Positions 3,913 to 47,202 of a DNA stretch of 64,000 nucleotides are shown here, in pieces. Source of the stretch: Candidatus Bathyarchaeota archaeon (GTDB lineage: Archaea; Thermoproteota; Bathyarchaeia; Bathyarchaeales; Bathycorpusculaceae). Location of the stretch: NCBI GenBank assembly GCA_963811105.1, contig CAWEPZ010000009.1, forward strand, positions 128,001 to 192,000, written 5' to 3'. The position numbers and the translations under genes are program-made. The notes under the pieces were generated by a model. That model ran no database searches and was not told the DNA's origin. It was given only the letters and a program-made list of their open reading frames with translations. Numbering within the stretch: the stretch's first letter is position 1; each line of letters starts with the position of its first letter.

Positions 3913-4034
3913 AGACTGCACAACCTGCGAATACACTTTCAGAGAGTCCATATAAATCGATATTTTCTCAATTAATTTTCTTGAATTCAGGCAATGTAAA
4001 AAACTTTATACATCAAAATCTCATTAATTAAATA

Positions 4035-9835: not shown

Positions 9836-9912
9836 GCCGAGGTAGCTCAGCCTGGGAGAGCGCTCGGCTGAAGACCGAGTCGTCGCATGTTCAAACCCTG
9901 CCCTCGGCACCA
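9836..9912 (+). tRNA. tRNA-Phe(GAA), CCA encoded; integration target
   Basis: GCCGAGG/CCTCGGC acceptor, CTCGG-CTGAAGA-CCGAG anticodon arm; one T-stem mismatch. Confidence 0.92.
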
Positions 9913-10176
9913 CCATTAACATAAAACAATCAACTTGATATGAAGTACATTAGCGTAAAGCGGGCTAAATTTAATTAATTTTGTCTATAAACAATTTTTC
10001 GAGCCTAGGCATTCCCGAAGAGCGTTTAAATCTTACAGCAAGATTCGAAAAAGTCATAAAATTATTAAAAAGACACTGTCTGAGAGAAAAACTGTTATTT
10101 CACTGAAGAAAAGCTTAAAGACGAAAGGGACGTAGTCTAACTTGAAGCAACCGCCGATCATCAAGGTGAACATGAA

Positions 10177-11058
10177 CTGCCTATTTTAGACCTAAACAAC
10201 GTTAGTTCGGGTTATAATAAGCAAACGATCTTACATGATATTAACTTCAAACTACAAGAACCCTCAATTTACGTTGTTTTGGGGCCAAACGGCGCGGGCA
10301 AGACAACTTTGTTTAGAACAATCGCCGTCATTCTGGAGCCATTTAGCGGCAATATTCTTCTTGATGGCCAAAACATAACTTACTCACGTGAAGCTAGAAA
10401 GAAACTGAGTTTCTTCTCGCAGAATGCCATGCCTGAAGAAATGACAGTATATCAGGCACTCAAGTTCTATTCCAATATGGAGGGCGGAGATCCAGACAAG
10501 GCAATTGAACTGCTCGATCTTAGTCAACTAAAAGACAAAAAGTACTCCGATCTTTCTCAAGGGCAGAAAAAAAGAGCGGCCCTCGCAAAAGTGTTTCTGT
10601 GTGAAAGAGACCTCTACCTATTAGATGAACCTACAGCAAATTTGGACCCAGTAGTTTCAAAAGAAATTCGCGATATTATATTAAAGCTGAGCAAGGACAA
10701 AATGATTCTGTACTCTTCCCATAATCTTTATGAAGCAACCGACATCGGCACTTATTTGATCCTAATCAAGAATGGTTCAGTTTCAACGTTTGATAGAATC
10801 TCAAACATCAAGCCCAAGAATTACCGCGTCGGCATCAAAACACAAACGGACATAACAAAAATTGTCGATGCCAAACGTGAGGGCGATTACTACGTCTTGA
10901 GTGTGTCCACCCCCGAGGAGGCTGGCCTTGCTCTCAAAAAAATCGTTGAAACAGGCATCTTAGTTACTGAAATGCGCCAACTAGACAATCCTTTACAAGA
11001 GCTCTTTGAGACATCCGGCGCCGAAAAAGCTACCGAAGGGTCAAAAAATGAAAAGTAA
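10177..11058 (+). CDS. ABC-2 type exporter ATP-binding protein
   Basis: GPNGAGKTT, LSQGQ, LLDEPT; N-terminus PILDLNNVSSGY upstream of track start; probable CTG start. Confidence 0.9.
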   Translation: MPILDLNNVSSGYNKQTILHDINFKLQEPSIYVVLGPNGAGKTTLFRTIAVILEPFSGNILLDGQNITYSREARKKLSFFSQNAMPEEMTVYQALKFYSNMEGGDPDKAIELLDLSQLKDKKYSDLSQGQKKRAALAKVFLCERDLYLLDEPTANLDPVVSKEIRDIILKLSKDKMILYSSHNLYEATDIGTYLILIKNGSVSTFDRISNIKPKNYRVGIKTQTDITKIVDAKREGDYYVLSVSTPEEAGLALKKIVETGILVTEMRQLDNPLQELFETSGAEKATEGSKNEK

Positions 11059-11731
11059 GTTTTTGGTTTTTGCTAAGCGTAGCCTCAACCTAAGTAAAAT
11101 ATATGCGGGAATGGGGCTGGTTCTTGCATCCTTTGGAATTTTTGTGATATACGCCCTATCTCTTCTTGCAGGAAGTTCACGTGCGGCTGTCTTTTTCCTA
11201 CCCGTGTCGTTTATGTCTCTTGGGCTTCTAATTTTTACTATTCCAGTCACATTACTCTATGTATATGACAAAAACAACGGTGTCTTGGAGTATTTGCTTT
11301 CGCTTGGTTGGAACCAAAGCGATATCTTCAAGCAATACCTGAAAGCCGCTCTCTTCCTTGCACTGATCCTCTTAACAGGGGAAGGTGCCGCAATTTTGAT
11401 CGCAGGAGCTATTTCGGGGTCAATTAGTGTTTTTCTCTTGGATTTGTTGATGCTGTTTCTTACTGCGTTTTTGGGTTTATCTGTGGTTTCTTTGGTTACT
11501 GTGGGTATGATGGCTTTTAGTTCGTTACAGAAGCAACGGGTAGGTGCTAACACTCCGCTTGGCTTTGGGCTTGGCGTTGTGTTTATCATTCCAACCTTTT
11601 ATCTTTCTTTTATTGGATTTATTCCAGAGCTCATAGTTGTCCTTTCCCTTTGTATCTTGGCAGGCGGCCTGTCAGCCGGGTTGCTCTTGCTATCGGGCAG
11701 GCTAATTAGAAGGGAAAAAATGTTGCCGTAA
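11048..11731 (+). CDS. ABC exporter permease
   Basis: About 6 TM segments, YDKNNGVLEYLLS; overlaps the ATPase stop. Confidence 0.75.
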   Translation: MKSKFLVFAKRSLNLSKIYAGMGLVLASFGIFVIYALSLLAGSSRAAVFFLPVSFMSLGLLIFTIPVTLLYVYDKNNGVLEYLLSLGWNQSDIFKQYLKAALFLALILLTGEGAAILIAGAISGSISVFLLDLLMLFLTAFLGLSVVSLVTVGMMAFSSLQKQRVGANTPLGFGLGVVFIIPTFYLSFIGFIPELIVVLSLCILAGGLSAGLLLLSGRLIRREKMLP

Positions 11732-12010
11732 ACGATACGGCTCTGAACCTATACAAGTCTGAGGCCCAGTGGATACACATTGGGCATGAAATTTAAGAAG
11801 AAGGACTTAAGCTACCACAAGTTATAAGGTCCCATACTTATCTGCGGCTAAGTCCATAGAGACCTATACCATTTTTGGTTAGAATCCAATTAATTTTGAG
11901 CCAAAACAACTTCGCTTATTTGAGGTTTAAGCGTTGTAATTCTGGAAAGGGATGAGACGAGAAAAGTTATTAGGAGAATTCTGCAAATATTCTTTTGGTG
12001 TTTTTGGTCC

Positions 12011-12391
12011 ATGAAAAAGAATTTTGAGTCAATTGATGAATACATCGCTTCTTTTCCCAAGAAAGTTCAAACTATTTTAGAGCAAATAAGGAAAGCCGTC
12101 AAGGACGCGGCTCCCAAAGCCGAAGAAGCAATTAGTTATAACATGCCAGCGTTCAAACTGAACGGCAATTTGGTCTGGTTTGGAGCATTCAAGAATCACG
12201 TAGGTTTCTATCCACGTGAGTCGGCCATCGAGGAATTCAAGGAAAAACTGTCCAGCTATGAAGTAAGCAAAGTCCAGGGCACTGTCAAATTTCCTTTGGA
12301 TAAGCCAATGCCATTAGATTTGATAAAGGAAATAGTAAAGTTCAGAGTAAAAGAAAACCTGAAAGAAACAAGCGGTTTCAGATACTCATGA
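12011..12391 (+). CDS. DUF1801/YdhG family protein
   Basis: SIDEYIASFP, ISYNMPAF, HVGFYP. Confidence 0.88.
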   Translation: MKKNFESIDEYIASFPKKVQTILEQIRKAVKDAAPKAEEAISYNMPAFKLNGNLVWFGAFKNHVGFYPRESAIEEFKEKLSSYEVSKVQGTVKFPLDKPMPLDLIKEIVKFRVKENLKETSGFRYS

Positions 12392-12401
12392 GTTGCTCAT
12401 G

Positions 12402-12575
12402 CTAAGCCTTCTTCTCGAAGTTGACTTTCACCTCTCCCAAAACCACGTTTTTGGTTATGTCGACGCCGTCTATGTAAACGTGCAAATCAGCCACTTTGCA
12501 GTTCAACCATAAGCCAAGCGCTTTGACTTGAGCCGAAGTTCGGTGGGTTGACGTTAAGATTATTTCTTCTGCCAT
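12402..12575 (-). CDS. Small hypothetical protein (57 aa)
   Basis: Manual translation MAEEIILTSTHRTSAQVKALGLWLNCKVADLHVYIDGVDITKNVVLGEVKVNFEKKA. Confidence 0.4.
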   Translation of the reverse strand: MAEEIILTSTHRTSAQVKALGLWLNCKVADLHVYIDGVDITKNVVLGEVKVNFEKKA

Positions 12576-12661
12576 AAGCGGTCACGTGAATTATTTTGAA
12601 GGCACACCATGCCAAACGATTTATAGAAATTCAGCCAGCTCCTCTATAAGCACTCAATCAA

Positions 12662-13072
12662 ATGAATGAAGAGACCCTCATGTCAACAAATTCTAAAAAT
12701 CTAAGCACAAACATGAACGCAGCTATTGCTTTACTCTACGTATTTACTGCCGCAATTATCGCAGCGTTCATAACAACCATAATTAGCGTTCCAGCAAATG
12801 TTCAGATTCTTGCAGTTGGCTTCATCACGCCACTTGTCGTTCTTAGCTTAGTTTTTATTTTCTATTGCAGGAAAGGGAAAGCTTGGAGTTTTGCTGGAGC
12901 TACTATCCTTGGAGCGATTGGTGTTCTCCTTCGAGTAATTATTAGTACTCAACCCGATATTGAGGTAGGCGGCGGACTTCCAGTTGGTGTAACTGCCCTC
13001 TACATAGTTCTTGGAGCTCTTGTCTCACTCAAAAGCTATGAATCATGGCTAGAACTAAAAGCAGGCATTTAG
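12662..13072 (+). CDS. Hypothetical membrane protein (4 TM)
   Basis: Four hydrophobic segments. Confidence 0.65.
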   Translation: MNEETLMSTNSKNLSTNMNAAIALLYVFTAAIIAAFITTIISVPANVQILAVGFITPLVVLSLVFIFYCRKGKAWSFAGATILGAIGVLLRVIISTQPDIEVGGGLPVGVTALYIVLGALVSLKSYESWLELKAGI

Positions 13073-13157
13073 CGCGCCGAGCTAAAATCACCATAACTTA
13101 TTGTGATTACGGCAAATGAACTAACTATTTAATTGGAACATGCCACTTGGAGTAAAT

Positions 13158-13853
13158 ATGCCAACTGACGAACAAGGGAAAAGGAAAGCCTACAAGGGCG
13201 TAGCAATGGAGGGTGTTATAGCCAAGCAGTATAACAGGATTCAAAAGCACATGATTGAAGAATACAAATTATGGGCTAAACTTGTAAGCGACAAAACATC
13301 TATTGGCGGAAACGTGCTTGAAGTTGCTCCCGGTCCAGGATACTTGTCAGTTGAACTCGCAAAGCTTGGCAACCATAACATAACTGGATTAGACATAAGC
13401 AAAACCTTTGTGGAAATCGCACAAAACAAGGCTACGGAAGCAGGAGTAAAGGTTGATTTTCGTCAGGGTGATGCTGCTGAAATGCCTTTTCTGGATGGAA
13501 CATTTGATTTTGTGGTCTGTACTTCTGCTTTCAAAAACTTTCCAGACCCGATTAAGGTCTTAGACGAAATATTTAGGATTTTAAAGGCAAACGGTAAGGC
13601 GCTGATTATCGATATGAATAAGGATGTTCCCAAAAACAAACTCAACGACTTTGTTGATCGCATGAAATTGAACTTGTTTGACTCTTATTTTACCAAGCAA
13701 ACTTTCAAAGGGTTAGCGAAATCGGCTTACACTCGAACCGAAATCCAAGACATCGTCAACAAATCACGATTTACGCAATGTCAGATTACAGATGAAGACA
13801 TCGGCTTTGAGGTATGGCTGGAAAAGGCAAAGGAAACAGAAAGATTAAGCTAA
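13158..13853 (+). CDS. Class I SAM-dependent methyltransferase
   Basis: VLEVAPGPG, GLDIS, GDAAEMPF, FDFVV. Confidence 0.88.
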   Translation: MPTDEQGKRKAYKGVAMEGVIAKQYNRIQKHMIEEYKLWAKLVSDKTSIGGNVLEVAPGPGYLSVELAKLGNHNITGLDISKTFVEIAQNKATEAGVKVDFRQGDAAEMPFLDGTFDFVVCTSAFKNFPDPIKVLDEIFRILKANGKALIIDMNKDVPKNKLNDFVDRMKLNLFDSYFTKQTFKGLAKSAYTRTEIQDIVNKSRFTQCQITDEDIGFEVWLEKAKETERLS

Positions 13854-14007
13854 TTTCCTCGAGCAGGATTCGCTTAATAGTTTAATTGCATTATTTCAGT
13901 TAATGATTACAGGCCAAAAATTTCTTGAAGTAACTTGTTTTGCCAATTCCCAATTCGACGAGCCGCTATTTTCTTTAAACGAGCAGACATATAGTTTATT
14001 GATTGAC

Positions 14008-15081
14008 ATGAACCTGGAAGATGTCGCCAAGCTTCGGTTGATTAATCATCAGATTGCTTATTCAGCTACCAAAGAACCCGGCGAAGTTGTCGCTTCGCTT
14101 GGCGCCATGCAGGCTCAAGATTATCAATCGGCACTCTGGGCTATTGGTCTTCGCGCCAAACAAGTAACTCTACCAGAGGTGGAATCAGCGATAAGTAACA
14201 GGGCAATTGTCCGGATTTGGCTGTTAAGAGGCACTTTGCATTTCGTAACAGCCCCTGATGTTCATTGGATGCTAAAGCTGTTAGGACCGCAAATTATTGC
14301 AGCCAGTGCTGGACGCCACCGTCAGCTGAAATTAGATGAGGCAACTTTTATGCGGGCTGAGGAACTATTTGTTGAAGCCCTCCAAAATGGTCAGTTGACT
14401 CGAGATGAAATGTTTAAGGTATTGGAAAAAGGAGGTATTTCTCATGAAGGTCAACGGGGCTACCATATTCTTTGGCGAGCAGCTCTGAAAGGGTTGATTT
14501 GTTTTGGTCCACAAAAGGGCAAAGAGCAGACTTTTGCTTTACTCAAACAATATGTACCAAAAGGCAAGAGTGTGAAACAGGCCGAAGCGTTGAGTGAACT
14601 CGCGCATCGTTACTTTTCAAGCCGAGGTCCAGCGTTGCTTGAGGATTTCGCTTGGTGGTCAGGGTTGAAGCTATCTGATGCGAAGATAGCTTTGGAAACA
14701 GCATCTTCTCGGCTCAGGTCAGAAACAATCGAAGGCAAAAGATATTGGATGCCCCACAGTACGCCCGAAAATGCAAAAGAGTTGGCAACAGCGTTTCTTT
14801 TGCCAGCTTTCGATGAGTATATCCTTGGTTACAGCGACCGAACCGCTACACTTGAACAACCTTATTTTAAGAAGGCAGTATCCAACAACGGCATCTTCTA
14901 CCCCACAATTAGCATTAATGGAAAAGTAGTGGGAACATGGAAGCGTACGTTCAAGAAAAGCAACATAGTCATTATGCTCAGCCCGTTTAAGACACTGACC
15001 CCAACACAAAGAAGTTCAATTGCTTTAGCAGCAAAACATTACAGCAGATTTATGGAAATGTCCGTATCAATCACAAAATAA
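14008..15081 (+). CDS. AlkZ/YcaQ (HTH_42) family DNA glycosylase
   Basis: MQAQD (QxQ), LRGTLH, DFAWWSGL, LLPAFDEY, GKVVGTW. Confidence 0.85.
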   Translation: MNLEDVAKLRLINHQIAYSATKEPGEVVASLGAMQAQDYQSALWAIGLRAKQVTLPEVESAISNRAIVRIWLLRGTLHFVTAPDVHWMLKLLGPQIIAASAGRHRQLKLDEATFMRAEELFVEALQNGQLTRDEMFKVLEKGGISHEGQRGYHILWRAALKGLICFGPQKGKEQTFALLKQYVPKGKSVKQAEALSELAHRYFSSRGPALLEDFAWWSGLKLSDAKIALETASSRLRSETIEGKRYWMPHSTPENAKELATAFLLPAFDEYILGYSDRTATLEQPYFKKAVSNNGIFYPTISINGKVVGTWKRTFKKSNIVIMLSPFKTLTPTQRSSIALAAKHYSRFMEMSVSITK

Positions 15082-15142
15082 GGTCACTCGGCACTTTTTA
15101 GTTCTATCAAGCAGCGGATCGTTGAGGCCTGCGCTGGTTGAT

Positions 15143-15730
15143 TTAGTTTATTCTAGCATAGCTCAATTCAACAGCACCCGAATTGAACGTCTTTGTCTCG
15201 ATTAGGTTTAGTCTCTGCCTAAAATCAAGATCTTTTAGCAAAAGTTTTCCTTTGCCTAAAATCACAGGATGAACAACAATCTGGTACTCGTCAATCAATC
15301 CCAGTTTCGCAAACGTCTGTGCTATCGTTGCACCACCCACAACGATCATGTTTTTCCCTGGTTGCTGCTTTAGTCTTTTTATTTCTTCAGCTATGTTACT
15401 ATTAATCAGCATGGAATTTTTCCATTCCACGTTGTTTAGAGTACTTGAGATTACAATTTTTTTGGTTTCATCCGCATATCGTGAAAACTTTTTGTCGTTT
15501 TCGGTGCTCTGAGGATTTTTTGCCGCTGCGGGCCAGTATTTCTCCCATATTTGATAAGTTCTTCGTCCAAGGATAGCAGTGTCCGCAAGTTTGAGGTTTT
15601 TCCACATTTCCTCATGGAGGTCTTTCCACATGGTTTCGTCATTGAAGGGCGGAAGATAATCCATTTCATCGTTTGGTCCAGTTGAAAAGCCGTCAAGTGT
15701 CATTTGCATTGACAAGATTATTTTTCTCAA
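15143..15730 (-). CDS. Dihydrofolate reductase/RibD C-terminal family
   Basis: MTLDG, LGRRTY, GGAT, LIDEY, PVILGKG. Confidence 0.88.
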   Translation of the reverse strand: MRKIILSMQMTLDGFSTGPNDEMDYLPPFNDETMWKDLHEEMWKNLKLADTAILGRRTYQIWEKYWPAAAKNPQSTENDKKFSRYADETKKIVISSTLNNVEWKNSMLINSNIAEEIKRLKQQPGKNMIVVGGATIAQTFAKLGLIDEYQIVVHPVILGKGKLLLKDLDFRQRLNLIETKTFNSGAVELSYARIN

Positions 15731-15872
15731 AAAATCACCAAATTAAACCAATCCAATAGCCTATAAAAATGTTTTTAGTTTGCCGTGGAAGCTTAAAAAA
15801 GGCATCCGCTAAACGCTTTCCGTTCTTCCTAAAAGATGAATAGATACTAATACGATTGTTAGCAATGCGGGC

Positions 15873-16115
15873 TCAATTAGTTTTTGACTTTTCTTTTTTT
15901 GCATCTGCCAATATCTTCATCTTGGCAAGCTCAGGTTTTTGTATGTATAAAATTATCGCGTTTGCGTGACCGCGTCCCAAGCCAAAGTCAGTCTTGAGCC
16001 AAGCAAGTAACTCACCATATTTTGTTAGCCCCTTCTCTTTTGCCAATGCTTGGAAATATTCAGGATCCTTGCCAGTCTTAGCCTTGATGTTGTCAATGTA
16101 TGCTTTATATGTCAT
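15873..16115 (-). CDS. DUF4287 family protein
   Basis: YIDNIKAKTGK, WLKTDFGLGRGHANA. Confidence 0.85.
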   Translation of the reverse strand: MTYKAYIDNIKAKTGKDPEYFQALAKEKGLTKYGELLAWLKTDFGLGRGHANAIILYIQKPELAKMKILADAKKEKSKTN

Positions 16116-16377
16116 AGTTTCTCAACTTGCTAATACCATTTTTCCTTTCCTAAAAGAGTTTGTCATTTAACGTGTAATTATGATATAGGCGAGCAAAGCA
16201 CTAAATAGTTTTTGGTGTGTATACATTGTAGTCCGGATCTTTCATTTATTTGGTTTCGCTTCCTTTCAGGTTCAAATTTTTAAAAGGTCCGTCCTCTGAT
16301 AATTTTTATTGGTAAATTTGGGGTTAGGATACCCAGCGCCCTAGAGAAAAAAAATCAGAAATCAAGTGTTAAGAAAA

Positions 16378-16482
16378 ATTTTGAAAACTTTTGGGTATGG
16401 GGACTTGTACCTTCAAACTTGGCCAAAATTTGCAAAGATTAGTCCTATTCAATGAGGTTGAGTTAGGGACTCACACCGTGTT
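16378..16482. repeat. Conserved right arm, copy A, 5' part (split by IS)
   Basis: Aligns with 23248-23351 (CCTATTCAATGAG...GGGACTCA-ACCGTG). Confidence 0.85.
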
Positions 16483-16571
16483 CAGACTGTGTAAAAACTT
16501 AGGATTAGAAAGAATTATACTTGACCTTCAAACTCGTCTGTAATTGATAGTTGCTTTCGTCTTGCCTTTTT

Positions 16572-18035
16572 TCATGCTTTTACTAAAGCCATTAACACGC
16601 CAACCCCAAGAATGTTGATAGCCCTTCGCATGTTGTAAGCCAACATCGTAAACCCAACCTCTCCTTTAACCTTCCTAAGCCCCTTCAAGAGCAAATAACC
16701 CTGATTGAAAGCCCGCTTCATGGATCCAAAAGGATGCTCCACTATCTCCCTTCTACGGTGCAACTTCTCTTTTCCCTCAGAAGTTCCCAACCGTGATCTG
16801 AGCCGTTCAACAGCGTCCTCGAATTCCCCCCTAAAAATAATCCTGCCACGCTTATTCCTAGTGCACTTGCTCCTAAAACCACACACCTCGCAACAAAGCG
16901 TCTTGTAAACTCTGCCTCGCTCCGGTTTACCCTTATGAAGGCACTTCCAAAACCCCAGATCCTCACCAGCAGGACAAACATAAACGTCCCTAACCGAGTC
17001 ATACACGAACCTGTCAGTATAGAATCCAGGCTCCGGCACCCCAAAACGCTTATGCGGATTCACAACTGCAGGAATGGGCATAAACACAGTTATGCCTTCA
17101 GCCTCACAATCTTTCAAATCCTTCATAACATAGAACCCTTTGTCGGTCGTTACCTCCAATCTTTCAACTCCAAGAGTCTGCTTTGCTGCTTTAGCATCGT
17201 TGACTAATTGATGGTGATCAGTTGAATTGTTTATCACGTCATAATCCACAATGAGATGCTTCTTGGCATCCACAGACGTTTGGACATTATAGCAAACATC
17301 CAGCCTTTGGCTGTCGACTCGCATCAAACGGCTATCTGGATCCACAAGCGAAACCTCCTTCTGCCCTGTCGCCTTCATCTGGTTCTGAGCATGCTCGTAC
17401 TGCTGCTTTTTCTCTTCAAGCCGGCCTATCCTTTCTTTAAGGTCATTGACTTTGAGGCTATCATTTTTGCCTGAGTCGGCTTTGTCATTCTCATCCATCA
17501 GCCTGAGGTATTCTGCTATCTTCTCCTCGGTCCGTTTAAGTCTCAACGCAACTGTGTTCTCGTTGAAATTGTTGCTCTTCGAGTTTACAGCCTTGAATTT
17601 GCTGCCATCTATGGCAATGAGCTGAGCACCATAGAGGTCGAGTGATCGGCATAGGTAGACGAATTCTTTGAATACAGGCTTTATACAGTCGACGTTGTCT
17701 TTTCTGAAGTCGGCAATGGTTTTGTGGTCTGGAGCGAGCTTCTTCATTAACCACATTACCTCGACGTTGCGGTAGCATTCTCTTTCAAATTTTCTGCTGG
17801 ACCGGATCTGGTTCAGATAGCCATATGTGTAGAGTTTTAGAAGGTCTGAAGGATTGTAAGATGGTCTTCCTGTGTCAGCAAGAATTGAGTGTTTGAAGCC
17901 GAGCTTCTCTAGATTGAGGCTGTCTATGAAGGCGTCAATGAACCTGACTGGGTTTTCTGCATCAACGTATTTGTCGAGGGTGTCTGGGAAGAGTATGGTT
18001 TGGTCTCGGTGTGTTCCGTCAACGTGTTCGCTCAT
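16572..18035 (-). CDS. IS1182-family DDE transposase
   Basis: GRPSYNP, SSRKFE, PDHKTIADFR, IDGSK, DKGF, VEHPFG. Confidence 0.93.
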   Translation of the reverse strand: MSEHVDGTHRDQTILFPDTLDKYVDAENPVRFIDAFIDSLNLEKLGFKHSILADTGRPSYNPSDLLKLYTYGYLNQIRSSRKFERECYRNVEVMWLMKKLAPDHKTIADFRKDNVDCIKPVFKEFVYLCRSLDLYGAQLIAIDGSKFKAVNSKSNNFNENTVALRLKRTEEKIAEYLRLMDENDKADSGKNDSLKVNDLKERIGRLEEKKQQYEHAQNQMKATGQKEVSLVDPDSRLMRVDSQRLDVCYNVQTSVDAKKHLIVDYDVINNSTDHHQLVNDAKAAKQTLGVERLEVTTDKGFYVMKDLKDCEAEGITVFMPIPAVVNPHKRFGVPEPGFYTDRFVYDSVRDVYVCPAGEDLGFWKCLHKGKPERGRVYKTLCCEVCGFRSKCTRNKRGRIIFRGEFEDAVERLRSRLGTSEGKEKLHRRREIVEHPFGSMKRAFNQGYLLLKGLRKVKGEVGFTMLAYNMRRAINILGVGVLMALVKA

Positions 18036-18217
18036 TGCTGTTCGTCTCCTTCGGCAGGTTCATCTACTATGACTATGTAGACTGTTTTGCCGAGGTATTC
18101 TTTTGGGCAGGTGACTTTGGCGCCTGTTCCGTAGGCTGTTACTTTTCTTTTTAGGAAGCCTATTATTCCGGTGACTTTGATTTCTGTTGCTGGCTCAAAA
18201 ACTATTTTCTTAGGCAT
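18032..18217 (-). CDS. DUF2080-like transposon-associated small protein
   Basis: KVTAYGTGAKVTCPKEYLGKTVYIVI; inside the IS, overlapping the transposase start. Confidence 0.8.
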   Translation of the reverse strand: MPKKIVFEPATEIKVTGIIGFLKRKVTAYGTGAKVTCPKEYLGKTVYIVIVDEPAEGDEQQ

Positions 18218-18298
18218 ATATAGCTAATATCACTCAATTATACATATAAAACTATCATTCTATCGAAAACCTAACATAGTTTTCACACAGTCTGTGTT

Positions 18299-18462
18299 GG
18301 GGTTAAGTCCGGTCCGACCTAACCTTTTTTTGGATTTTGTTGTAACGAGGGTTTAAACGACGGTGTCAAGCTAGCCCTCGGCACCAAATAACCTTAATTT
18401 GAGGTTATTTTGCAATATTGGGGATAAATTATAACTTTATGGCTGTTCTCCAAGGAGGGGTA
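18299..18462. repeat. Junction A: rest of right arm, tRNA-Phe 3' copy (18374-18386), left arm
   Basis: Closely matches 23352-23516. Confidence 0.9.
18386..18411 (+). terminator. Palindrome plus T-run directly after the att copy (possible terminator or binding site)
   Basis: AAATAACCT-n7-AGGTTATTT; variant at 23441-23465. Confidence 0.45.
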
Positions 18463-18535
18463 ACAAACAAACGGCAGATGGGAATCCACGCGTGCGAAGA
18501 TCCAAAAAAAGATTTGAGCGCGCAGTTGTTTACGC

Positions 18536-18970
18536 TCAATTTTTCTTACGGTAATTGACTGCTACTACTGCGCTGACGGCAATTACAGTTGCGAGCAAGG
18601 CGATTCCTAAGATAGTTAATGTATTGTCCGGTTGGGGTGCAGGAGCGATAAGTGGCGCGTTTTCATCGTTTAGGCTATCTTGAGTAGTGTAGAGTGTGGC
18701 GTTGTCATCGGGTGAAGCTGTACTATTGTCTTGGGCTCTATCTAAGGTTGAATTGTCGTCTGTTGCTGCGGTACTGTCGTCTTGAGCAGTATACAGGGTT
18801 GGATTTTCACTAATTAATCCACCGCCATTGTCGGTTGACGTTGAATCGGGAATTCGAGTTGGATCGATTTGAGCACTTGCACTCGAAATTGCAGTTGCAG
18901 ATAACAAGAACAATGTTAATACCGCAACGGTTAAGAATTTATTTTTCTTGATTTGTGATTTATTTTCCAT
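18536..18970 (-). CDS. Secreted, C-terminally anchored Asp/Thr-rich repeat protein
   Basis: Signal peptide, 17-aa repeats TLxxAQDxSTAxxDDN, C-terminal TM plus RKKN. Confidence 0.7.
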   Translation of the reverse strand: MENKSQIKKNKFLTVAVLTLFLLSATAISSASAQIDPTRIPDSTSTDNGGGLISENPTLYTAQDDSTAATDDNSTLDRAQDNSTASPDDNATLYTTQDSLNDENAPLIAPAPQPDNTLTILGIALLATVIAVSAVVAVNYRKKN

Positions 18971-19022
18971 TTTTAACCGCCTATTCATCTAAGTGGAAGA
19001 ATGTTGAATTTAGCACCATGCA

Positions 19023-19073
19023 TTAGAACACAACATCATAATTTTTGGAACGGGGTGTTCTAAACAATAGAAC
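19023..19073. promoter_or_regulatory. Putative operator between divergent genes
   Basis: TRGAAC at 19024, 19046 and 19068 (22-bp period); TTGGAAC-n5-GTTCTAA palindrome. Confidence 0.5.
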
Positions 19074-19189
19074 GGAGAATTGCTCATTCATCGTATCTTT
19101 TGACTTCCGAAAATGGACATTCGTCAACAAAAGTGAAAAATATTAAATACTCAATCAAAACATAAAAAAAGTCAAAGAGAAAAGTCAAA

Positions 19190-19885
19190 ATGGATTATTA
19201 CAGAAAGCTCGCAATAATTGCGGGAGTATTATTTATCATTTATACAAGTGGAGATATCCTAAGCTTCTTATTTACGGGACCTGTGTCGGCTCCGGATTAT
19301 CTTGTTAGTGTTTCTGCAAATAGAGGTCTAGTAGGAACAGGAGCCCTTCTTTTGTTCAACGGTGGTCTTTGCGCTTCTGGTATTGCAATTGCGCTATATC
19401 CAGTGCTAAAAAAATTCAATGCAGGGTTAGCTCTTGGAGCTGTTGGTTTCAGGATTTCTGAGGGAGTATTACGTTTTGTTACTGTGTCTGCCCTACTATT
19501 ACTAATAATATTAAGCCAGCAATTTGTACAAGCTGGAGCTCCTGATTCATCGTTTTTCCAAACCTTAGGCGTATTGCTAGTAGCAGGTTTTGAAAGCGGT
19601 TTTGGGTCGATACTGGCTTTTTCCATAGGTGCTCTGCTATATTATATCATATTTTATCGAACAAAACTAGTTCCTCGATGGATATCGGTCTGGGGTCTTG
19701 CTGCTGCCATATTGACCATATTATCATTCGTGTTAGCTACGGTCGGCCTCATCGCTCCTGGCAGTACGGAAGAAACCGTTTTGGCTCTTCCAATGCTCCC
19801 GCAAGAAATGGTTCTTGCGGTATGGCTGATAGCTAAAGGATTCAATCCATCTGTAATTGCTTCCAAGTCTCCTCAAGTGGAATAG
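19190..19885 (+). CDS. DUF4386 family membrane protein
   Basis: LYPVLKK, LVPRWISVWG, EMVLAVWLIAKGF. Confidence 0.85.
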   Translation: MDYYRKLAIIAGVLFIIYTSGDILSFLFTGPVSAPDYLVSVSANRGLVGTGALLLFNGGLCASGIAIALYPVLKKFNAGLALGAVGFRISEGVLRFVTVSALLLLIILSQQFVQAGAPDSSFFQTLGVLLVAGFESGFGSILAFSIGALLYYIIFYRTKLVPRWISVWGLAAAILTILSFVLATVGLIAPGSTEETVLALPMLPQEMVLAVWLIAKGFNPSVIASKSPQVE

Positions 19886-19997
19886 TTGAATAACCATGGA
19901 AACCCCAGCGTACCAGGAGTCATCTTGTTTTTATGATGAGGGGCGCACGCGCTCGGCGACAAGTGTTAAATAAAGGAAAAAGACATAAAGGCAAGTC

Positions 19998-20411
19998 ATG
20001 GGCGCCAAAACTTCAAAGCCAAATTATGCTAGCTTAATTACCAAAATTCTGATAGTTCTGGTCATACTCAACATTGCTGGGGACGTTTTAGCTGCGGCGT
20101 TTTTTCTGTGGGACCCTTCCTTAGGAGAGTTGTCAGTATACGGCGGTTTGATTGCAAGTTTTGCGGGAAAAAATGGTGCCGTTATGATAACAAGCGCCAT
20201 TCTTTTAGGCTACGCGGTGGTTTACGCTGTTTCTGTCTTTGGGTTGTTAAGTAAATTAAAGTGGGCACCGCCTCTGGTTATTGCCGTTTCGGTAGTGAAT
20301 CGCGCGCTTGCTCTGGGGGTTATTTTTGAGCCAAACGTTGCTTGGCTAATCTGGTCAGCGTGGAAACTCGTCATAATAGCTTTAGCTGGGTATCTTTGGC
20401 GCAAAATGTAA
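19998..20411 (+). CDS. Hypothetical membrane protein
   Basis: Four hydrophobic segments. Confidence 0.65.
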   Translation: MGAKTSKPNYASLITKILIVLVILNIAGDVLAAAFFLWDPSLGELSVYGGLIASFAGKNGAVMITSAILLGYAVVYAVSVFGLLSKLKWAPPLVIAVSVVNRALALGVIFEPNVAWLIWSAWKLVIIALAGYLWRKM

Positions 20412-20489
20412 TTTAACTTTTGGAGGCGCTCCCTGTTTGGGGAGAGTATCTAAACCGCATCTTAGTTGACCATTTCACCAATCATTCGA

Positions 20490-21428
20490 CTAAGCGGGCA
20501 AGCTATGCTGCAAAGTTATGACGACGTTTCCTTTTTTGTGCCCCGTTTCTACATAGCGGTGGGCTTCGACAATCTGCTCCAAAGGATACGTCCTATCGAT
20601 GACTGCTTTTAGTTTGCCTGCTTCAATTAGACCGCTAAGTGTTGACAAATCATTTGGCTCCATGCCCCCGTTCCCCCAAGTGGAGAGAAAAACGCCGTAT
20701 TCTGTCAGCGATCCCTTCGCCTTTGAACGCGAAATTTTGCCTACTGCGTCAAAAACCAAGTCATACCTCTGACCATTTTTGGCGAAATCTTCTTTGGCGT
20801 AATCAATCACAACATCCGCCCCTAAAGATTTGACTAACTCCAAATTAGCGGCGCTGCATACGCCGGTAACTTGTGCCCCGTAATTTTTAGCAAGCTGAAC
20901 GGCGTAAGTGCCAACGCTTCCCGACGCGCCATAAACAAGAATTTTCTGCCCGTTCTTGACGTTTGCTTTCCTAAGAAAAGCCAGCGCAGTCATACCGCCA
21001 ATGGGAACAGCAGCAGCTTCCTCAAAAGTCAAATTTGCCGGTTTCTTTGCGACCTCGATAACTACTCTTCCCACCACGTCTGTATCTGGAAGACAAATAT
21101 ATTCGGCATATCCCCCACCAAAACCGGTTGCAGCAAAGACTTCATCACCAACCCTAAATTTTTCTACACCTTTGCCAATTGTCTCGACTACCCCAGACAC
21201 TTCCATCCCAAGGACTTTATTTTTTGGCCCTGTTAAACCTAAAGCAAACCGGGCAGGGAGCCAAAAATGGGCTGGCACTTTGAAGCCTCGCATTCTTATG
21301 TCTCCTGCAGTCACGGTTGTGGCATTTATTTTCACCAGTACTTCATTGTCTTTTGGAACTGGTTTTTCTATTTCCTTGAGGTGAAGAACCTCTGGGGAGC
21401 CATATTTTTCGTATATTGCTGCTTTCAT
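20490..21428 (-). CDS. NAD(P)-dependent MDR-family oxidoreductase (quinone reductase-like)
   Basis: [29 protein letters not shown]. Confidence 0.9.
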
Positions 21429-21483
21429 TTCGATTACCCTTTATTGAAAGTTGATTTTTAACTTTAAAAGAAGAAGGAGAAGG

Positions 21484-21885
21484 CTAACCTTCCTGTTTAG
21501 GCCACTTCCATGCATACCAAACAATTAGTGCAATAAACACAACTTCTAAAATCTCATAAAATACATAATAAGCCCAAGTCTCTCCTGGTGCAAGCAGTGC
21601 AGGGACCAAAACACCAGCATAGACTATACCCGCAATGATGTTTACCCGGCGATTCACTTTAGCCGGCAATGCTAGAGACAAGAAAATCATAAAAATCGGA
21701 ATAGCCATTAATATTGCAGCTCCAACCAAAAATACTTGATTAAGCGCTTTTTCTCCTGATAGTACTTTCTCTACCATATCTTGCCTATAGGATCCGAAAA
21801 CATCGTTATATAAATAAAGAAACATTAAAGCTACCCATAATGTTGAAAGCTTTATCTTCACATTTATCTTCACATCTTCTAACAT
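21484..21885 (-). CDS. DUF6326 family membrane protein
   Basis: KLSTLWVALMFLYLYND, IVWYAWKWP. Confidence 0.8.
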   Translation of the reverse strand: MLEDVKINVKIKLSTLWVALMFLYLYNDVFGSYRQDMVEKVLSGEKALNQVFLVGAAILMAIPIFMIFLSLALPAKVNRRVNIIAGIVYAGVLVPALLAPGETWAYYVFYEILEVVFIALIVWYAWKWPKQEG

Positions 21886-22093
21886 TGACTTATCTCTCTC
21901 CCCACATTGACAGTTAGGGGGGTATCTGTCGATTTGGATTTAAGACTTGTGTTTGAATACACTAAGAAAGGAAAGAAACTCTTCCCAGAAAATGTCAAGT
22001 AACTGCTTTTACTTACGCGTGTGAAAAAATTTCTGATTTACTTTTGAGGCAAAATACTATTATCCTTTAAAGTAATTATTCCTACATATCAAA

Positions 22094-23074
22094 ATGAAAG
22101 CGATTGTCCACACAAAATACGGTTCTTCTGATGTTCTTCGAACCAAAGAGGTAGAGAGACCTACTCCCAAGGATAATGAAGTACTGATTAAGGTTCAGGC
22201 GGTATCCGTTAATAGATCTGACTGGGAGGGATTGACAGGCTCACCTTTGTATGCCCGCTTTGGGGGTCTTCTTAAACCACGGTACCAGATACTCGGATCG
22301 GATATAGCCGGGCGAGTTGAGATGGTTGGCAGAAACGTCTCGCGATTTCAAACAGGGGATGAGGTCTTCGGAGATACCTCGTTTCGTATGGGTGGTTTTG
22401 CAGAGTATGCCTGCGCTCTTGAAGAAACCTTAGCGCTGAAACCAACCAGTATGACATTCGAGGAGGCAGCGACAATCCCACAAGGAGCTGTGATCGCTTT
22501 ACAGGGGATTCGAGATAAAGGACAAATCCAGCCAGGTCAAAAGGTTTTAATTAATGGCGCTGGCGGCGGCGCAGGTATGTTTGCAGTGCAGCTTGCTAAG
22601 TTATACGGGGCTGAGGTGACTGGAGTGGATAACACCGACAAGCTGGATTTTATGCATTCGCTTGGTGCTGACCATGTCATTGATTACATTAAAGAAGACT
22701 TTACCAAAAATGGACAGCAGTATGATCTGATACTTGATGTAGTAGCTAATCGTTCGGTCTTCGCCTATAAGCGGGCGCTAAGGCTCAATGGAAGCTATTT
22801 TGCTGTCGGAGGTTCTGCAGCTAGACTTTTCCAGATTTTGCTCCTGGGACCATGGATTAGAAGAACATCAGGCAAGAAAATACGGATCCTGGCGGTTCAA
22901 CCAAATCTAAAAGATTTGGTTTATATAACGGAGCTTTGTGAAGCCGGCAAAATCATCCCATTTATTGATAAACGGTATTCGTTAAATGAGGTTCCTGAAG
23001 CGCTTCAGTATCTTGGTGAAGGACGTGTCAAAGGAAAAGTTGTCATAATTGTTAAGCTTAACCTTGATCCGTAG
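22094..23074 (+). CDS. NAD(P)-dependent MDR-family oxidoreductase
   Basis: GSDIAG, NGAGGGAG, GRVKGKVVI. Confidence 0.9.
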   Translation: MKAIVHTKYGSSDVLRTKEVERPTPKDNEVLIKVQAVSVNRSDWEGLTGSPLYARFGGLLKPRYQILGSDIAGRVEMVGRNVSRFQTGDEVFGDTSFRMGGFAEYACALEETLALKPTSMTFEEAATIPQGAVIALQGIRDKGQIQPGQKVLINGAGGGAGMFAVQLAKLYGAEVTGVDNTDKLDFMHSLGADHVIDYIKEDFTKNGQQYDLILDVVANRSVFAYKRALRLNGSYFAVGGSAARLFQILLLGPWIRRTSGKKIRILAVQPNLKDLVYITELCEAGKIIPFIDKRYSLNEVPEALQYLGEGRVKGKVVIIVKLNLDP

Positions 23075-23247
23075 CTTTGTTGCCTTAGTCTTTATCGAAG
23101 TCCTTTCAACTTTTGGCAATCCAAGCAACTCCTATGTCTACCTTCTGATCGACACAGTAATGAACATTCCAAGGATCCTTAGCTCCTGGAATAGTTATTG
23201 GCTAACTATACACAAGGGCGTACGGACAAACCTAATTTTGGTCTGCG

Positions 23248-23516
23248 TTTTGAACCAGTTCGGGCATGGTGACGGGCAGCTTCAAACCTTGGTCAAAACT
23301 TAGGAAAATAGCCCTATTCAATGAGTCTCACCCCTGGGACTCATACCGTGTAGGGGGTAAGCCGGTACGACCTGCCCATGTTTTTTAGATAATGTAGTAA
23401 CGACGGCTTAAACGACGGTGTCAATCTAGCCCTCGGCACCAAATACCCTTAATTTGAGGTTATTTTGCAATATTGGGCATAAATTACAACATTATGTGCG
23501 CTCTGCAAGGAGGGTA
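23248..23516. repeat. Junction B: intact right arm, tRNA-Phe 3' copy (23429-23441), left arm
   Basis: Homologous to junctions A and C. Confidence 0.9.
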
Positions 23517-23659
23517 ATGAGATATGAAAGAAGGAACGTTTCTGCTCATAGATTTTGTCGGAAAAGCAAAATAATGGTTGAAGCAAACAATATTGTTTGA
23601 CGATTGGAGGTAGCAGGTTGATTTCGGGGACAAGGGGCCTCCAAATATTTTTCTAAATG

Positions 23660-23929
23660 TTAGAGCATTTTTGAAAAGTCATCGTACACTTTGCTTCTAT
23701 GGCCGACAAAAAGAATGACTACTTGGTTTTTGTTTTGGTCTATTTCATAGATGACGCGGTAGTCGCCTACTCGTAGACTCCAGAAATCTGATTGTTTTAG
23801 GGGTTTTCCTATTTTGTCGGGGTTTTCACGTAGTTGTTTTGCGCTATCGATTATTCTGGTTCGGATGTGTTCTTCAGTTTTTTGGAGTTCTTTTGCTGCT
23901 TTAGGATGCAGAAGTACTTTGAAAGTCAC
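23660..23929 (-). CDS. RelE/ParE family type II toxin
   Basis: HPKAAKEL, GKPLK, LRVGDYRVIY, VGHRSKVY. Confidence 0.9.
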   Translation of the reverse strand: MTFKVLLHPKAAKELQKTEEHIRTRIIDSAKQLRENPDKIGKPLKQSDFWSLRVGDYRVIYEIDQNKNQVVILFVGHRSKVYDDFSKML

Positions 23930-24147
23930 TCTAGTTCCTCTATAGGAATGAGGGATTCTGGGTGTTGTTTTGCTTCTTCGCTTCGTTCCATGAGTGTGTT
24001 AAAGAAGTTGCATGTTTTTTCGCGTTCTTGGTAGTACGTGATGATTGATTTTATGGCGTCGCTTCGGTTTTTGAAGCGGCCTTCTGCTACCCATCCATCT
24101 ATTTCCTCGAGGGTTTTTTGTGGAAGACGTAGTTGTACTTGAGCCAA
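23926..24147 (-). CDS. Ribbon-helix-helix antitoxin
   Basis: VQLRLP..LEEID..GRFKNRSDAI; 4-bp overlap with toxin. Confidence 0.85.
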   Translation of the reverse strand: MAQVQLRLPQKTLEEIDGWVAEGRFKNRSDAIKSIITYYQEREKTCNFFNTLMERSEEAKQHPESLIPIEELE

Positions 24148-24157
24148 ATATGTCGCC

Positions 24158-24175
24158 GTAAACAGTACTGTTTAC
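24158..24175. promoter_or_regulatory. Putative TA autoregulatory operator
   Basis: Perfect 18-bp palindrome GTAAACAGTACTGTTTAC 10 bp upstream of the antitoxin start. Confidence 0.7.
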
Positions 24176-24435
24176 AACTCACTTAAACGTTTCCTAAACA
24201 ACCATCCGAATCAGTCTTCTTAGCCCTTGAGATGCCTTCAACTGAGGTTCCATAGGAACTTTCAAGGATAACACAGAAACAAGAAATGGAGACATGGAGT
24301 TTTCTAACTATATTAGTCTTAGCTATAGTTTTGTCAGTGATTGCTATTGCGACAGTTGTAGTTATCTATAAAAAATTGAAACTCATGGAAGAGACCACTT
24401 TTTGCCTAATAATTAAGAAAACTATGATCTAAAAT

Positions 24436-24576
24436 TAGGAAATAGCCTTATTCGGTAAGTCTTAGCATAGGGACTCATACCGTGTAGAGGATAAGCCCAG
24501 TATGACCTGCCCCTGTTTTTTAGATAATGTTGTAACGACGGCTTAAACGACGGTTTCAAGCTAGCCCTCGGCGCCA
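24436..24576. repeat. Junction C: right arm plus terminal att copy
   Basis: GGGACTCATACCGTG...AACGACGGCTTAAACGACGG...CTAGCCCTCGGCGCCA; no left arm follows. Confidence 0.9.
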
Positions 24577-24647
24577 TAACTTCTTCTGTTTCTGAGACGT
24601 TCACATTTATTTCTTCAATTTCACAAATCTGATAGAGAGGAATATGA

Positions 24648-25201
24648 ATGGAACTTAATTAGTGCATTAAAGGTGGAAGAAGCATTAGAGCTTATACGGC
24701 TGAACCAGTTTCGAAAGAACAAATTAACGCTACCTTGGAAGCAGGCATATGGGTGCCCAAAGCGATGAATAGACAGCCGTGGAAGTTCATAATCATAGAA
24801 GACAAGAAACTACTCAAGCTCATATCTGAGAAACTAAGATTTTAGTCAAGCAAATGATGCCTCGGTTAGCTAAAAATTTTTGCACTGAAGCGGATATTGT
24901 CTGTTACAACGCACCCGTGATCATATTAGTTTGCACAGAGAAGGATGAACAATGGATAACTTAGACGTCATCGACAGTGTTCTTGCTGCACAAAACATGT
25001 TCTTAAAGGTTTATGAGTTGGGGCTTGGAACATGCTAAATGGGCTTAGTTAACTTCCTAAAACCCAAACCTGACATTCTCAAAAAAAATTGGCGTTCCGG
25101 AGAATTATCAAATGATGGTACCTTTCATTTTAGGTCACCCAAAAACCAAACAAGGCACGGGAAAAAGGAAGAAACCAGAAATCAAAGAATGGCTGACGTA
25201 A
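24648..25201 (+). pseudogene. Nitroreductase family pseudogene
   Basis: RSIRAY, MNRQPWKF, YNAPVII, AAQNMFL, LGLGTC with in-frame stops and frameshifts. Confidence 0.85.
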
Positions 25202-25266
25202 AATCACCGCAAAAAATAGAGTCAGACAACGAAAGACTCGCATAAAATTCAATAATCGGAAGCCGT

Positions 25267-38682: not shown

Positions 38683-38828
38683 ACCACTGAAGCGAAAAAA
38701 CAATCTTCCTTTTTCTATTTTTTCTTCAAGCTTCCCAAATGGAATTAATATTTTCAGTCAACTTACAGTTGCTTATTCGAAAGTTATTAAAGCTATGATA
38801 ACTATAGATTAAACCTCGGAGAATAATA

Positions 38829-38921
38829 ATGCCGAAAAAAGAAAAACCATTAACCAAAAAAGAAAGAGACGAGAAAAGAAAAGCAAAAAAGCAAAAGCAG
38901 AGCAAAACACAGACCTCTTAA
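38829..38921 (+). CDS. Small Lys-rich peptide (30 aa)
   Basis: MPKKEKPLTKKERDEKRKAKKQKQSKTQTS; GGAGA SD and TATA-like sequence upstream. Confidence 0.45.
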   Translation: MPKKEKPLTKKERDEKRKAKKQKQSKTQTS

Positions 38922-46889: not shown

Positions 46890-47202
46890 GGGCTGGTGTA
46901 TTGGCAGTAACCCGCCTTCTGTTATTGTGGCATTCGGCTAATCGGGCTACCCGCGCCTTCTGGTAGAGACTTCATCGGCGGCTGTTTGCCCTTTCCACTT
47001 GCAGGACGGCCGTTTCACCGCTTCCAAACTGGCGCACTCTACATCACAAATGTGTCATCGCCCAGTCCAGTTGGACGTTTCGTTTCTGCTCCGTTGCCAA
47101 GGTTCTCACCCTGTCCAGGGGACTGCAATTCTACATGTGGGCGGAGTTTCCTCAGACCCAGCATTTTTCGGGTCCGACAGCCACACACCAACTCGCCAGC
47201 CC
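46890..47202 (-). ncRNA. rnpB: Archaeal RNase P RNA
   Basis: P4 signatures GAGGAAACTCCGCCC and AACAGAAGGCGGGTTAC; terminal P1 pairing; ends approximate. Confidence 0.92.

Follow-up and report, generated by a model that had tools for sequence, protein, structure and literature searches.

In this work, we analysed positions 23248-23441 of a 64,000-nt stretch of DNA from a Bathyarchaeota genome (hereafter, the window) and found that this segment very likely closes a mobile gene cassette on its right-hand side, where the cassette meets 13 nt copied from the 3′ end of the gene for the phenylalanine transfer RNA (tRNA-Phe), as judged from the anatomy of the repeats to which it belongs. The window is archaeal by content, with an archaeal RNase P RNA found at 46896-47196 by an Rfam search. 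It contains three repeat copies in the same orientation, at about 18.3 (copy A), 23.4 (copy B, the segment in question) and 24.5 kb (copy C), and all three are closed by the core GCCCTCGGCACCA. The final 13 nt of the tRNA-Phe gene (9836-9912) are identical to this core, and the copies are situated on the strand of the gene, 8.4, 13.5 and 14.6 kb downstream. That gene is the sole one for tRNA-Phe in the window and, according to ARAGORN, the only one in the whole 96.65%-complete genome (designated G000; other G numbers denote genomes of relatives, and L numbers denote loci). Repeated integration at one tRNA gene would be expected to leave such a layout of A, B and C, and the copies most probably represent attR-type or attP-like junctions of cassettes stacked behind tRNA-Phe.

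Several traits of the repeats listed in an initial annotation of this DNA were recovered. The direct repeat AACGACGG-YTTA-AACGACGG occurs at 18344 (with one mismatch), 23399 and 24534, which makes three matches at two mismatches or fewer against none expected from 100 shuffles. The TCAA-n4-GCCCTCGG echo of the tRNA T-loop is present in all three copies and derives from tRNA-Phe, and the left edge of the repeat unit falls at about 23243-23249, in agreement with the earlier placement. The proposal that the arm is part of a site-specific recombination site also gained support, since its core is the tRNA-Phe 3′ end and its end-signal recurs downstream of tRNA-Phe genes (see below). That annotation linked the repeats neither to the tRNA-Phe gene 13 kb upstream nor to the insertion sequence (IS) that splits copy A nor to an integrase.

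The END signal and its tRNA-derived cores

When copy B was compared by BLAST with 150 other genomes of the family, matches were obtained in 13 of them (11 of 70 genera, counting that of G000), nearly all limited to the final 45 nt, GTAACGACGGYTTAAACG-N8-AAGCTAGCCCTCGGCAC, a block which we named END. It is made up of a T-run, AACGACGG, TTTAAAC and the T-loop-like TCAAGCTA, the arm of about 45-62 nt being conserved across Bathyarchaeia genera. The information content of END peaks at GACGGTTTAAACG and AAGCTAGCCC, its most conserved block is GTTTAAAC, and a T-run stands upstream of END in every END-bearing arm. The second AACGACGG varies in other genera, where AACGCTCC, AACGACCC and other units take its place and only the first unit and TTTAAACG are kept; the direct repeat is therefore a trait of the window's genus and its close kin rather than of the family, and the idea of a paired AACGACGG as a conserved feature had to be given up. 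A search for the exact END pattern among 185,579 species, each represented by one genome, returned 42 loci in 28 named assemblies, every one of them titled Bathyarchaeota or Bathyarchaeia. A pattern scan of 332 family genomes served only as a source of loci, as its tally of 225 genomes is inflated by chance matches at two mismatches and a reversed control matches as well.

END lies downstream of tRNA-Phe and co-oriented with it, 1.7 to 15 kb off, in G000 and in eight further genomes, namely G139 (with three ENDs), G084, G038, G094, G159, G186, G193 and G334; in G193, ARAGORN calls the tRNA-Phe only with a 1433-nt intron. The cargo adjacent to END varies by genome and includes PIN, AbiE toxin-antitoxin, an OLD-family nuclease, dehydrogenases (ADH), regulators and unknowns. 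A 238-aa protein beside END in G038, G094 and G139, which belongs to no Pfam family and is no integrase as judged by tblastn, was treated as cargo. We rejected a viral source of END, as the three pattern loci in IMG/VR are all chance matches without a core, and also the interpretation of END or the arm as a tRNA or a tRNA half, as the stems misfit a cloverleaf and ARAGORN makes no call there.

Furthermore, the same arm was found with cores from several tRNAs. The 78 distinct END instances differ in their cores: the Phe core occurs in its exact form in 39 (near variants uncounted), the tRNA-Leu(TAG) core ACCCCCTGCAC in 12 and GCCCGCAGCAC in six, and single cases have other ends. In G000, tRNA-Leu(TAG) ends in ACCCCCTGCACCA. 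Downstream of tRNA-Leu(GAG), at 2.4 kb, stands an END bearing ACCCTCCGCAC, and downstream of tRNA-Ser(GCT), at 1 kb, one bearing ACATCCCGCGCCA. One arm is thus joined to the 3′ ends of tRNA-Phe, Leu(TAG), Leu(GAG) and Ser(GCT), each time downstream of its cognate tRNA. The identity to the tRNA starts at the last T-stem base and extends through the acceptor 3′ strand in every tRNA type seen, and GTGTCAAGCTA, just 5′ of the identity block, merely resembles a T-loop. Because the cognate identity starts there in every type, we placed the crossover at the T-stem/acceptor-strand boundary and infer that it falls within the acceptor-strand block. In cases where CCA is not encoded by the tRNA gene, END agrees with the gene's own flank (GCACTT...) rather than with CCA, so the core was copied from DNA and not from the mature tRNA; a copying route by reverse transcription from the mature molecule, of the primer-binding-site kind, was rejected on these grounds.

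The sequence on the other side of the core (P′) also recurs. A stretch of 75 nt, AAATAACCTTAATTTGAGGTTATTTTGC..., is common to A, B and a fourth copy, which lies on another contig of G000 (C11:566173-566342) and is cut by the same IS as copy A, at the same spot; this P′ resembles the flank after tRNA-Phe in other genera. A second P′ type, ATTAACATAAAACAATC..., follows the window's own tRNA-Phe and was found after ENDs in three other assemblies. At its start (23442-23470 and 18387-18415), the first type contains a 9-bp hairpin followed by T's, AAATAACCT-TAATTTG-AGGTTATTTT, which resembles the region behind tRNA-Phe in other genera that holds the native terminator.

As to the tRNA-Phe genes themselves, the T-stem of the window gene (9880-9900) reads GCATG/CCTGC with a T.C mismatch, and relatives have GCCGG/CCGGC or GCAGG/CCTGC. 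At L041, L044, L051 and L052, from several genera, the gene bears an insert of 20-30 nt before the anticodon loop, a non-canonical intron position; the window gene is free of it. At L103 (2853-4378), ARAGORN reports a tRNA-Phe with a 1433-nt "intron" holding an open reading frame for a DNA methylase (2985-3986), and END follows 0.8 kb downstream; this "intron" may be an insertion inside the tRNA gene.

Integrases and the proposed accretion

In relatives, a tyrosine integrase gene lies convergent, either directly after the tRNA or after the last END. In G190 (C7), the order is tRNA-Leu(TAG), 9 kb, END, 9 kb, END, 5 kb, END and then a convergent integrase, which is intact (468 aa, PF00589 with E 3e-22), bears an N-terminal zinc-ribbon-like CxxC pair and has its stop codon 60 nt past the last core. 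G000 possesses the same tRNA-Leu(TAG), flank and integrase with nothing between, the integrase being split into two overlapping frames (a pseudogene); the interval from this tRNA to the integrase is empty in G000 and holds three cassettes, about 23 kb, in G190. In G334, 40 nt separate tRNA-Phe from a convergent integrase split over three frames (frameshifted), which precedes a few genes, ParE with its ribbon-helix-helix (RHH) partner, and END with the core; past these come a second module, a partial tRNA-Phe, and the genes for a nitroreductase, DUF429 and an amino-acid kinase. G332 has an integrase remnant after an END with the Phe core and also an intact integrase of the family convergent on tRNA-Pro. 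Copies or fragments of this integrase family also lie beside several other tRNA genes in G000.

The flank after copy C consists of genes for a nitroreductase, DUF429, an amino-acid kinase and a hydantoinase-like protein, and the trio of the first three was found after the island in G334 and beside an END in G214. With tRNA-Phe on one side and this syntenic flank on the other, the island is bounded at both ends, and the interval between tRNA-Phe and the nitroreductase gene differs in content among G000, G334 and G214. The ParE/RHH module (window 23525-24212) is 94.3% identical to its counterpart in G334 over 688 nt and, together with part of the arm, 94.9% identical to that in G214 over 885 nt, whereas neighbouring core genes of the same genomes show only 66-70% identity. 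This comparison indicates that the ParE/RHH cassette was exchanged recently.

Most probably, circular elements with a P arm, a core and P′ would recombine with the tRNA-Phe 3′ end, and a tRNA-targeting tyrosine integrase would catalyse the reaction. Each arrival would restore the tRNA and shift older elements outward, newer arrivals lying nearest the tRNA gene. The resulting order would be tRNA-Phe, cassette, END and core (A), cassette, END and core (B), the ParE/RHH cassette, END and core (C) and the chromosome, in which A and B would be internal P-core-P′ (attP-like) junctions and C the terminal attR. The 30 nt to the left of the core, with AACGACGG, GTTTAAAC and the T-loop-like TCAAGCTA, are the most likely putative site for the integrase or an accessory protein, and the T6 run before END is a probable stop of plus-strand transcription of the cargo. 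The island in the window either lost its integrase or never possessed one, and its cassettes would be movable only by a related integrase supplied in trans, in the manner of cis-mobilizable elements (CIMEs).

A number of observations speak against this scheme. Recombination is deduced solely from comparative anatomy; we saw neither an excised circle nor an empty site nor a junction read, and the metatranscriptome and DNA contigs contain no informative joint at the cores. We found no integrase in or beside the window's island (9913-24576), nor in the arrays of G139, G084, G016, G038 and G094. The simple overlap rule for tyrosine recombinases fails to explain how one arm can be joined to differing acceptor-strand cores. 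In G038, the tRNA is followed by a "native-like" flank and END by another sequence, an order that blurs the assignment of the chromosomal flank and of P′ at some loci. Finally, the fourth copy, on C11, is not adjacent to any tRNA-Phe.

Other integrase and tRNA remnants deserve mention in their own right. A decayed integrase of the same family lies at window 48364-49215 on the minus strand, with three stops in its PF00589 match, 1.2 kb from the RNase P RNA gene and with no tRNA nearby. Three intact family integrases of G000 each precede a tRNA gene that has the same orientation, namely C14:12917-14236 with tRNA-Asp (14323-14400), C6:37352-38605 with tRNA-Gly (38764-38838) and C8:83501-84652 with tRNA-Ile (83178-83255); this layout is opposite to the convergent one at tRNA-Phe, Leu and Pro and may reflect a second integration geometry. 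The island of G334 ends in a 35-nt partial tRNA-Phe (L162:8520-8554), comprising the T-arm and acceptor strand and devoid of the END arm, thus indicating that at least two element types use tRNA-Phe. A split integrase of the SSV type running through the core was considered and rejected: a short minus-strand frame does span B and C, but the conservation elsewhere is at the DNA level, over 45 nt and at all codon positions.

The hairpin module, its insertion sequence and the rival explanations

To the left of END, copy B contains a hairpin in which TCATACCG (23341-23348) pairs with CGGTACGA (23363-23370) and the plus-strand GGGAC (23336-23340) with GCCCA (23374-23378); copy C has the equivalent. 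Its strand bias, noticed in the initial annotation as a stem of the minus strand, was borne out in an alignment of 16 arms with an intact hairpin, read on the minus strand and comprising B, C and 14 loci from records of metagenome-assembled genomes or from genome handles, in which some handles may denote the same assemblies as some records. RNAalifold predicts a 13-bp helix, GGGGC-AGG-TCGTACCG...CGGTATGA-GTCCC, with an energy of -12.5 on the minus strand vs. -5.0 on the plus strand. Pairing is retained in 91.0% of the 201 cells on the minus strand vs. 68.7% on the plus strand, strand-specific G.U cells number 49 vs. 4, and all but one of the 16 sequences show better pairing on the minus strand, the exception being a tie. 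Four helix pairs are changed on both sides (e.g., U-A to G-C in four sequences), and sliding the partner by one column reduces the pairing to 48%. In the shuffle controls, the two cell-based measures were attained by 1/500 and 3/500 and the pair count by 90/500, figures which overstate the support, since the sequences are related, and are no probabilities. The strand bias stands as large and consistent across the 16 sequences, and the module could be folded strand-specifically, as RNA or as single-stranded DNA. The overlapping alternative stem ATGAGTC/GACTCAT proposed earlier is real in B (7/7 pairs) but is not conserved: C, L115 and L106 form 6/7 pairs, and the remaining 12 arms just 2-5/7.

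The hairpin lies 55-95 nt from the core and thus from the presumed crossover. The module that carries it runs on as ...GACTCACTTTGCCGAAGAG without END at no fewer than seven places in G000, and the left 150 nt act as a dispersed repeat with about ten partial copies in this genome. Many ENDs in other genera have another sequence at the position of the hairpin; in one END subfamily, it is GGTTTGAACCC-loop-GGGTTCAAATCCCGCCCGACCCACC, which resembles the T-arm and acceptor end of another tRNA. The left 150 nt are a separate, dispersed non-coding module and not the crossover site. A global fold of the 150-nt module in seven sequences yielded nothing convincing (-6.8 for the plus strand and -10.6 for the minus strand). 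Rfam matched only RNase P and two tRNAs in the whole window at gathering scores; with E values of up to 10 allowed, the stretch 23100-23650 gave no more than a chance match to Ocean-VII (E 5.3). RNA contigs (X18, X19 and X20, from three metatranscriptome runs) cover ParE/RHH and an ADH gene and have a depth of 0 to 1.5 over 23242-23509, vs. 6.5 to 38 for the DNA run X1, a low depth that is no evidence of absence, as assembled RNA contigs cannot show small RNAs, strand or ends. The idea of a guide RNA whose loop specifies the target tRNA was rejected, since identical loops occur with Phe and Leu cores.

The hairpin loop is also where the IS resides. In copy A, an IS inserted in the loop separates the stem arms (16471-16478 and 18310-18317) by 1.8 kb; it is flanked by a TGTT target duplication (16479-16482 and 18295-18298). 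The same IS family, with ends ...ACACAGTCTG, occupies the same spot in six arms of different genomes: the window copy, G000:C11:566363-568150, L122, L129, L092 and L096. The insertion point is 4 nt before GGGGTTAAG or GGGTTCAAATCC in the loop, and 10 of 24 IS-end matches in G000 are followed by N4 and GGG or CGG, which suggests that the target is a CCC-N4-GGG palindrome with a 4-bp duplication. Moreover, one metagenome contig has the IS end joined at position 23362 of a B-like arm.

The strand bias of the hairpin invites another interpretation, namely that the arm is, instead of or besides a recombination arm, a small structured RNA of the minus strand, expressed from the TTTAAAC box in END or, where a convergent integrase gene comes after END, by read-through from it, and that the repeats are copies of an RNA gene. 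The better pairing and energy on the minus strand, the excess of G.U cells, the changes on both sides of the helix, the occurrence of the module without END and the rank of GTTTAAAC as the best-conserved END block all agree with it. However, nothing convincing folds beyond one hairpin, Rfam gave no matching family, no purine run resembling a transcription factor B recognition element (BRE) stands beside the TTTAAAC box on either strand, and the shuffles overstate the case, their pair count being readily reached; above all, the tRNA-derived core and its place downstream of the cognate tRNA would be left unexplained. We consider this interpretation unlikely, and the small RNA that the initial annotation would have driven from a TTTAAR box fared no better, with Rfam empty and the RNA contigs barely touching the arm, the latter being weak evidence.

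A further alternative is an integron-like system, in which a recombinase would capture the cassettes in single-stranded form and would recognise the hairpin as an attC-like folded strand. The pairing suits DNA too, where G.T is tolerated, the co-oriented cargo arrays have a conserved site ending each cassette and include toxin-antitoxin genes, and the IS targets the hairpin, just as some IS and introns target attC. Such a system nevertheless appears very improbable, and the attC-like folded strand suggested earlier did not survive: the hairpin is far from the start of the tRNA identity, END is non-palindromic, free of inverted repeats and conserved in sequence as a direct-repeat site, while attC is conserved in structure, the module and END occur one without the other, and the integrase is remote from the insertion point, at the opposite end of the array. 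Slightly less credible still is that the copies are plain segmental duplications, or a dispersed repeat akin to miniature inverted-repeat transposable elements (MITEs) or repetitive extragenic palindromes (REPs), with a coincidental tRNA-like end and no role in recombination. The dispersal of the left 150 nt and their being a preferred IS target are what one would expect of such a repeat, yet the 13-nt core always matches the cognate tRNA and switches to Leu and Ser ends at Leu and Ser loci, END stands beside unrelated cargo across genera, always downstream of the tRNA and co-oriented with it, and cassette content differs among genomes with common flanks. For the END-core part, plain duplication is already contradicted.

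Related systems and the layout of the island

Cassettes stacked at a tRNA gene, as we read the copies here, are a known kind of genome island, now found in a little-studied group. Tandem accretion of integrative elements and their integrase-less derivatives at one att site is known for CIMEs with ICESt1/ICESt3 in Streptococcus. The ssrA islands of Dehalococcoides likewise grow by tandem accretion at one att site (PMC3146451). As far as the accessible part of that source goes, the accretion systems and the window are alike in that co-oriented repeats of the 3′ end of a small-RNA gene split the island into modules, the newest beside the gene, and in that some modules have no integrase and would need one in trans. 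Unlike them, the present host is archaeal (Bathyarchaeia), the target identity is very short, at about 13 nt, mobility is deduced from sequence, and an arm of 45-62 nt common to several genera is reused with at least four different tRNA ends. In Prochlorococcus, tycheposons are tyrosine-recombinase cargo elements at tRNA genes, whose repeated integrations push older ones deeper into the island (bioRxiv 10.1101/2020.12.28.424599). In the portion of that preprint available to us, they are described, similarly to the window arrays, as cargo elements stacked at a tRNA, with partial tRNAs and broken integrases scattered in the islands; they usually have their own integrase and replication modules, whereas most Bathyarchaeia cassettes are cargo only, their activity was shown by polymerase chain reaction (PCR), whereas the Bathyarchaeia cassettes are known from their sequence, and no conserved hairpin module is described there.

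Archaeal integrons and CALINs (clusters of attC sites lacking integrases) have been described (PMC9668308). Judging from the accessible part of this source, they and the window have in common co-oriented cassettes each ending in a recombination site, many arrays with no adjacent integrase, and toxin-antitoxin cargo. Unlike integrons, the present arrays show no attC-type palindrome (R''-L''...L'-R') across the crossover, the site being conserved in sequence and built of direct repeats; they dock at a tRNA 3′ end and not at attI, their cassettes are multi-gene and in both orientations, and, judged by position, the integrase is absent beside the window's tRNA-Phe and elsewhere lies convergent at the distal array end or directly after the tRNA. 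Our literature searches on this topic turned up provirus surveys and archaeal integrons but no account of tRNA-anchored cassette arrays in Bathyarchaeia.

Within archaea, integrative elements accumulate at tRNA genes, bounded by tRNA-derived direct repeats, as do the cassettes of the window. She et al. in 2001 reportedly described gene capture by such elements at tRNA genes, with integrases of the SSV and pNOB8 types. In the SSV type, integration splits the integrase gene, the att core being inside it. In contrast, the integrase gene of the present arrays is either intact or has decayed where it stands, and it lies convergent at 40-60 nt past the core; in other genera, END is not crossed by any conserved open frame.

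Taken together, the identity of the segment is more ordinary than the initial annotation proposed, namely an attR/attP-type end of tRNA-targeting tyrosine-integrase elements and of their integrase-less cassette derivatives. What is new is the host group, the portable END that is common to several genera and reused with several tRNA ends, and the minus-strand hairpin module together with the IS inserting into it. Bathyarchaeia are abundant and almost uncultured, and the movement of their accessory genes has barely been described. With the short, searchable end-signal marking cassette borders at several tRNA genes, the candidate integrase family and the direct evidence that exchange was recent, the flexible genome of Bathyarchaeia becomes mappable, and the hairpin module and its IS are concrete experimental handles. 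More tentatively, we entertain the possibility that Bathyarchaeia run an integron-like economy, in which an end-signal of about 60 nt (T-run, AACGACGG, GTTTAAAC and the T-loop mimic) would let resident tRNA-adjacent integrases dock integrase-free cassettes at several tRNA 3′ ends, and the attached module, folded on the minus strand, would act as single-stranded RNA or DNA in the control or processing of the cassettes.

The features of the island are listed in Table 1.

Table 1. Features of the tRNA-Phe island and its repeat copies (window coordinates)
Feature	Position	Strand
tRNA-Phe(GAA) gene, putative attachment target; last 13 nt (GCCCTCGGCACCA) are the repeated core	9836..9912	+
Island of presumably stacked cassettes, from tRNA-Phe to the syntenic chromosomal flank	9913..24576	+
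Copy A, left half of the arm module, with hairpin arm TCACACCG at 16471-16478	16379..16482	+
IS in the hairpin loop of copy A; inverted ends CAGACTGTGT.../...ACACAGTCTG	16483..18294	-
IS gene, DDE transposase (DUF772/DDE_Tnp_1_6 domains)	16572-18035	-
IS gene, DUF2080	18032-18217	-
Copy A, right half: hairpin arm CGGTCCGA 18310-18317, T-run, END 18342-18386, core 18374-18386	18295..18386	+
Putative left end (P′) of the next cassette, AAATAACCTTAATTTGAGGTTATTTTGC..., common to B and the C11 copy	18387..18459	+
Copy B, arm module with strand-biased 13-bp hairpin	23248..23378	-
Copy B, alternative stem, B-specific	23322-23345	
T6 run directly upstream of END, conserved in END-bearing arms	23381..23386	+
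Copy B, END proper (putative P arm beside the crossover)	23397..23428	+
Copy B, END parts: AACGACGG	23399-23406	+
Copy B, END parts: CTTAAAC	23407-23413	+
Copy B, END parts: second AACGACGG	23411-23418	+
Copy B, END parts: T-loop-like GTCAATCTA	23420-23428	+
Copy B, core: copy of the tRNA-Phe acceptor 3′ strand and ACCA; probable crossover region	23429..23441	+
Putative P′ left end of the ParE/RHH cassette	23442..23514	+
ParE toxin (23660-23929) and RHH antitoxin (23926-24147), cassette cargo	23660..24147	-
Copy C, putative terminal junction: hairpin arm, END 24532-24576, core 24564-24576 (GCCCTCGGCGCCA); then unique chromosomal DNA	24419..24576	+
Nitroreductase-family gene, in short frames; first gene of the conserved chromosomal flank	24645..25245	+

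Besides ParE/RHH, the cargo of the island includes an ABC ATPase, DUF1801, a methyltransferase, an AlkZ-like protein, RibD_C, DUF4287, DUF4386, DUF6326 and three ADH-family genes (20490-21428, 22094-23074 and neighbours). The nitroreductase gene that follows copy C is broken in the window and intact in G334 (183 aa) and G214 (239 aa).

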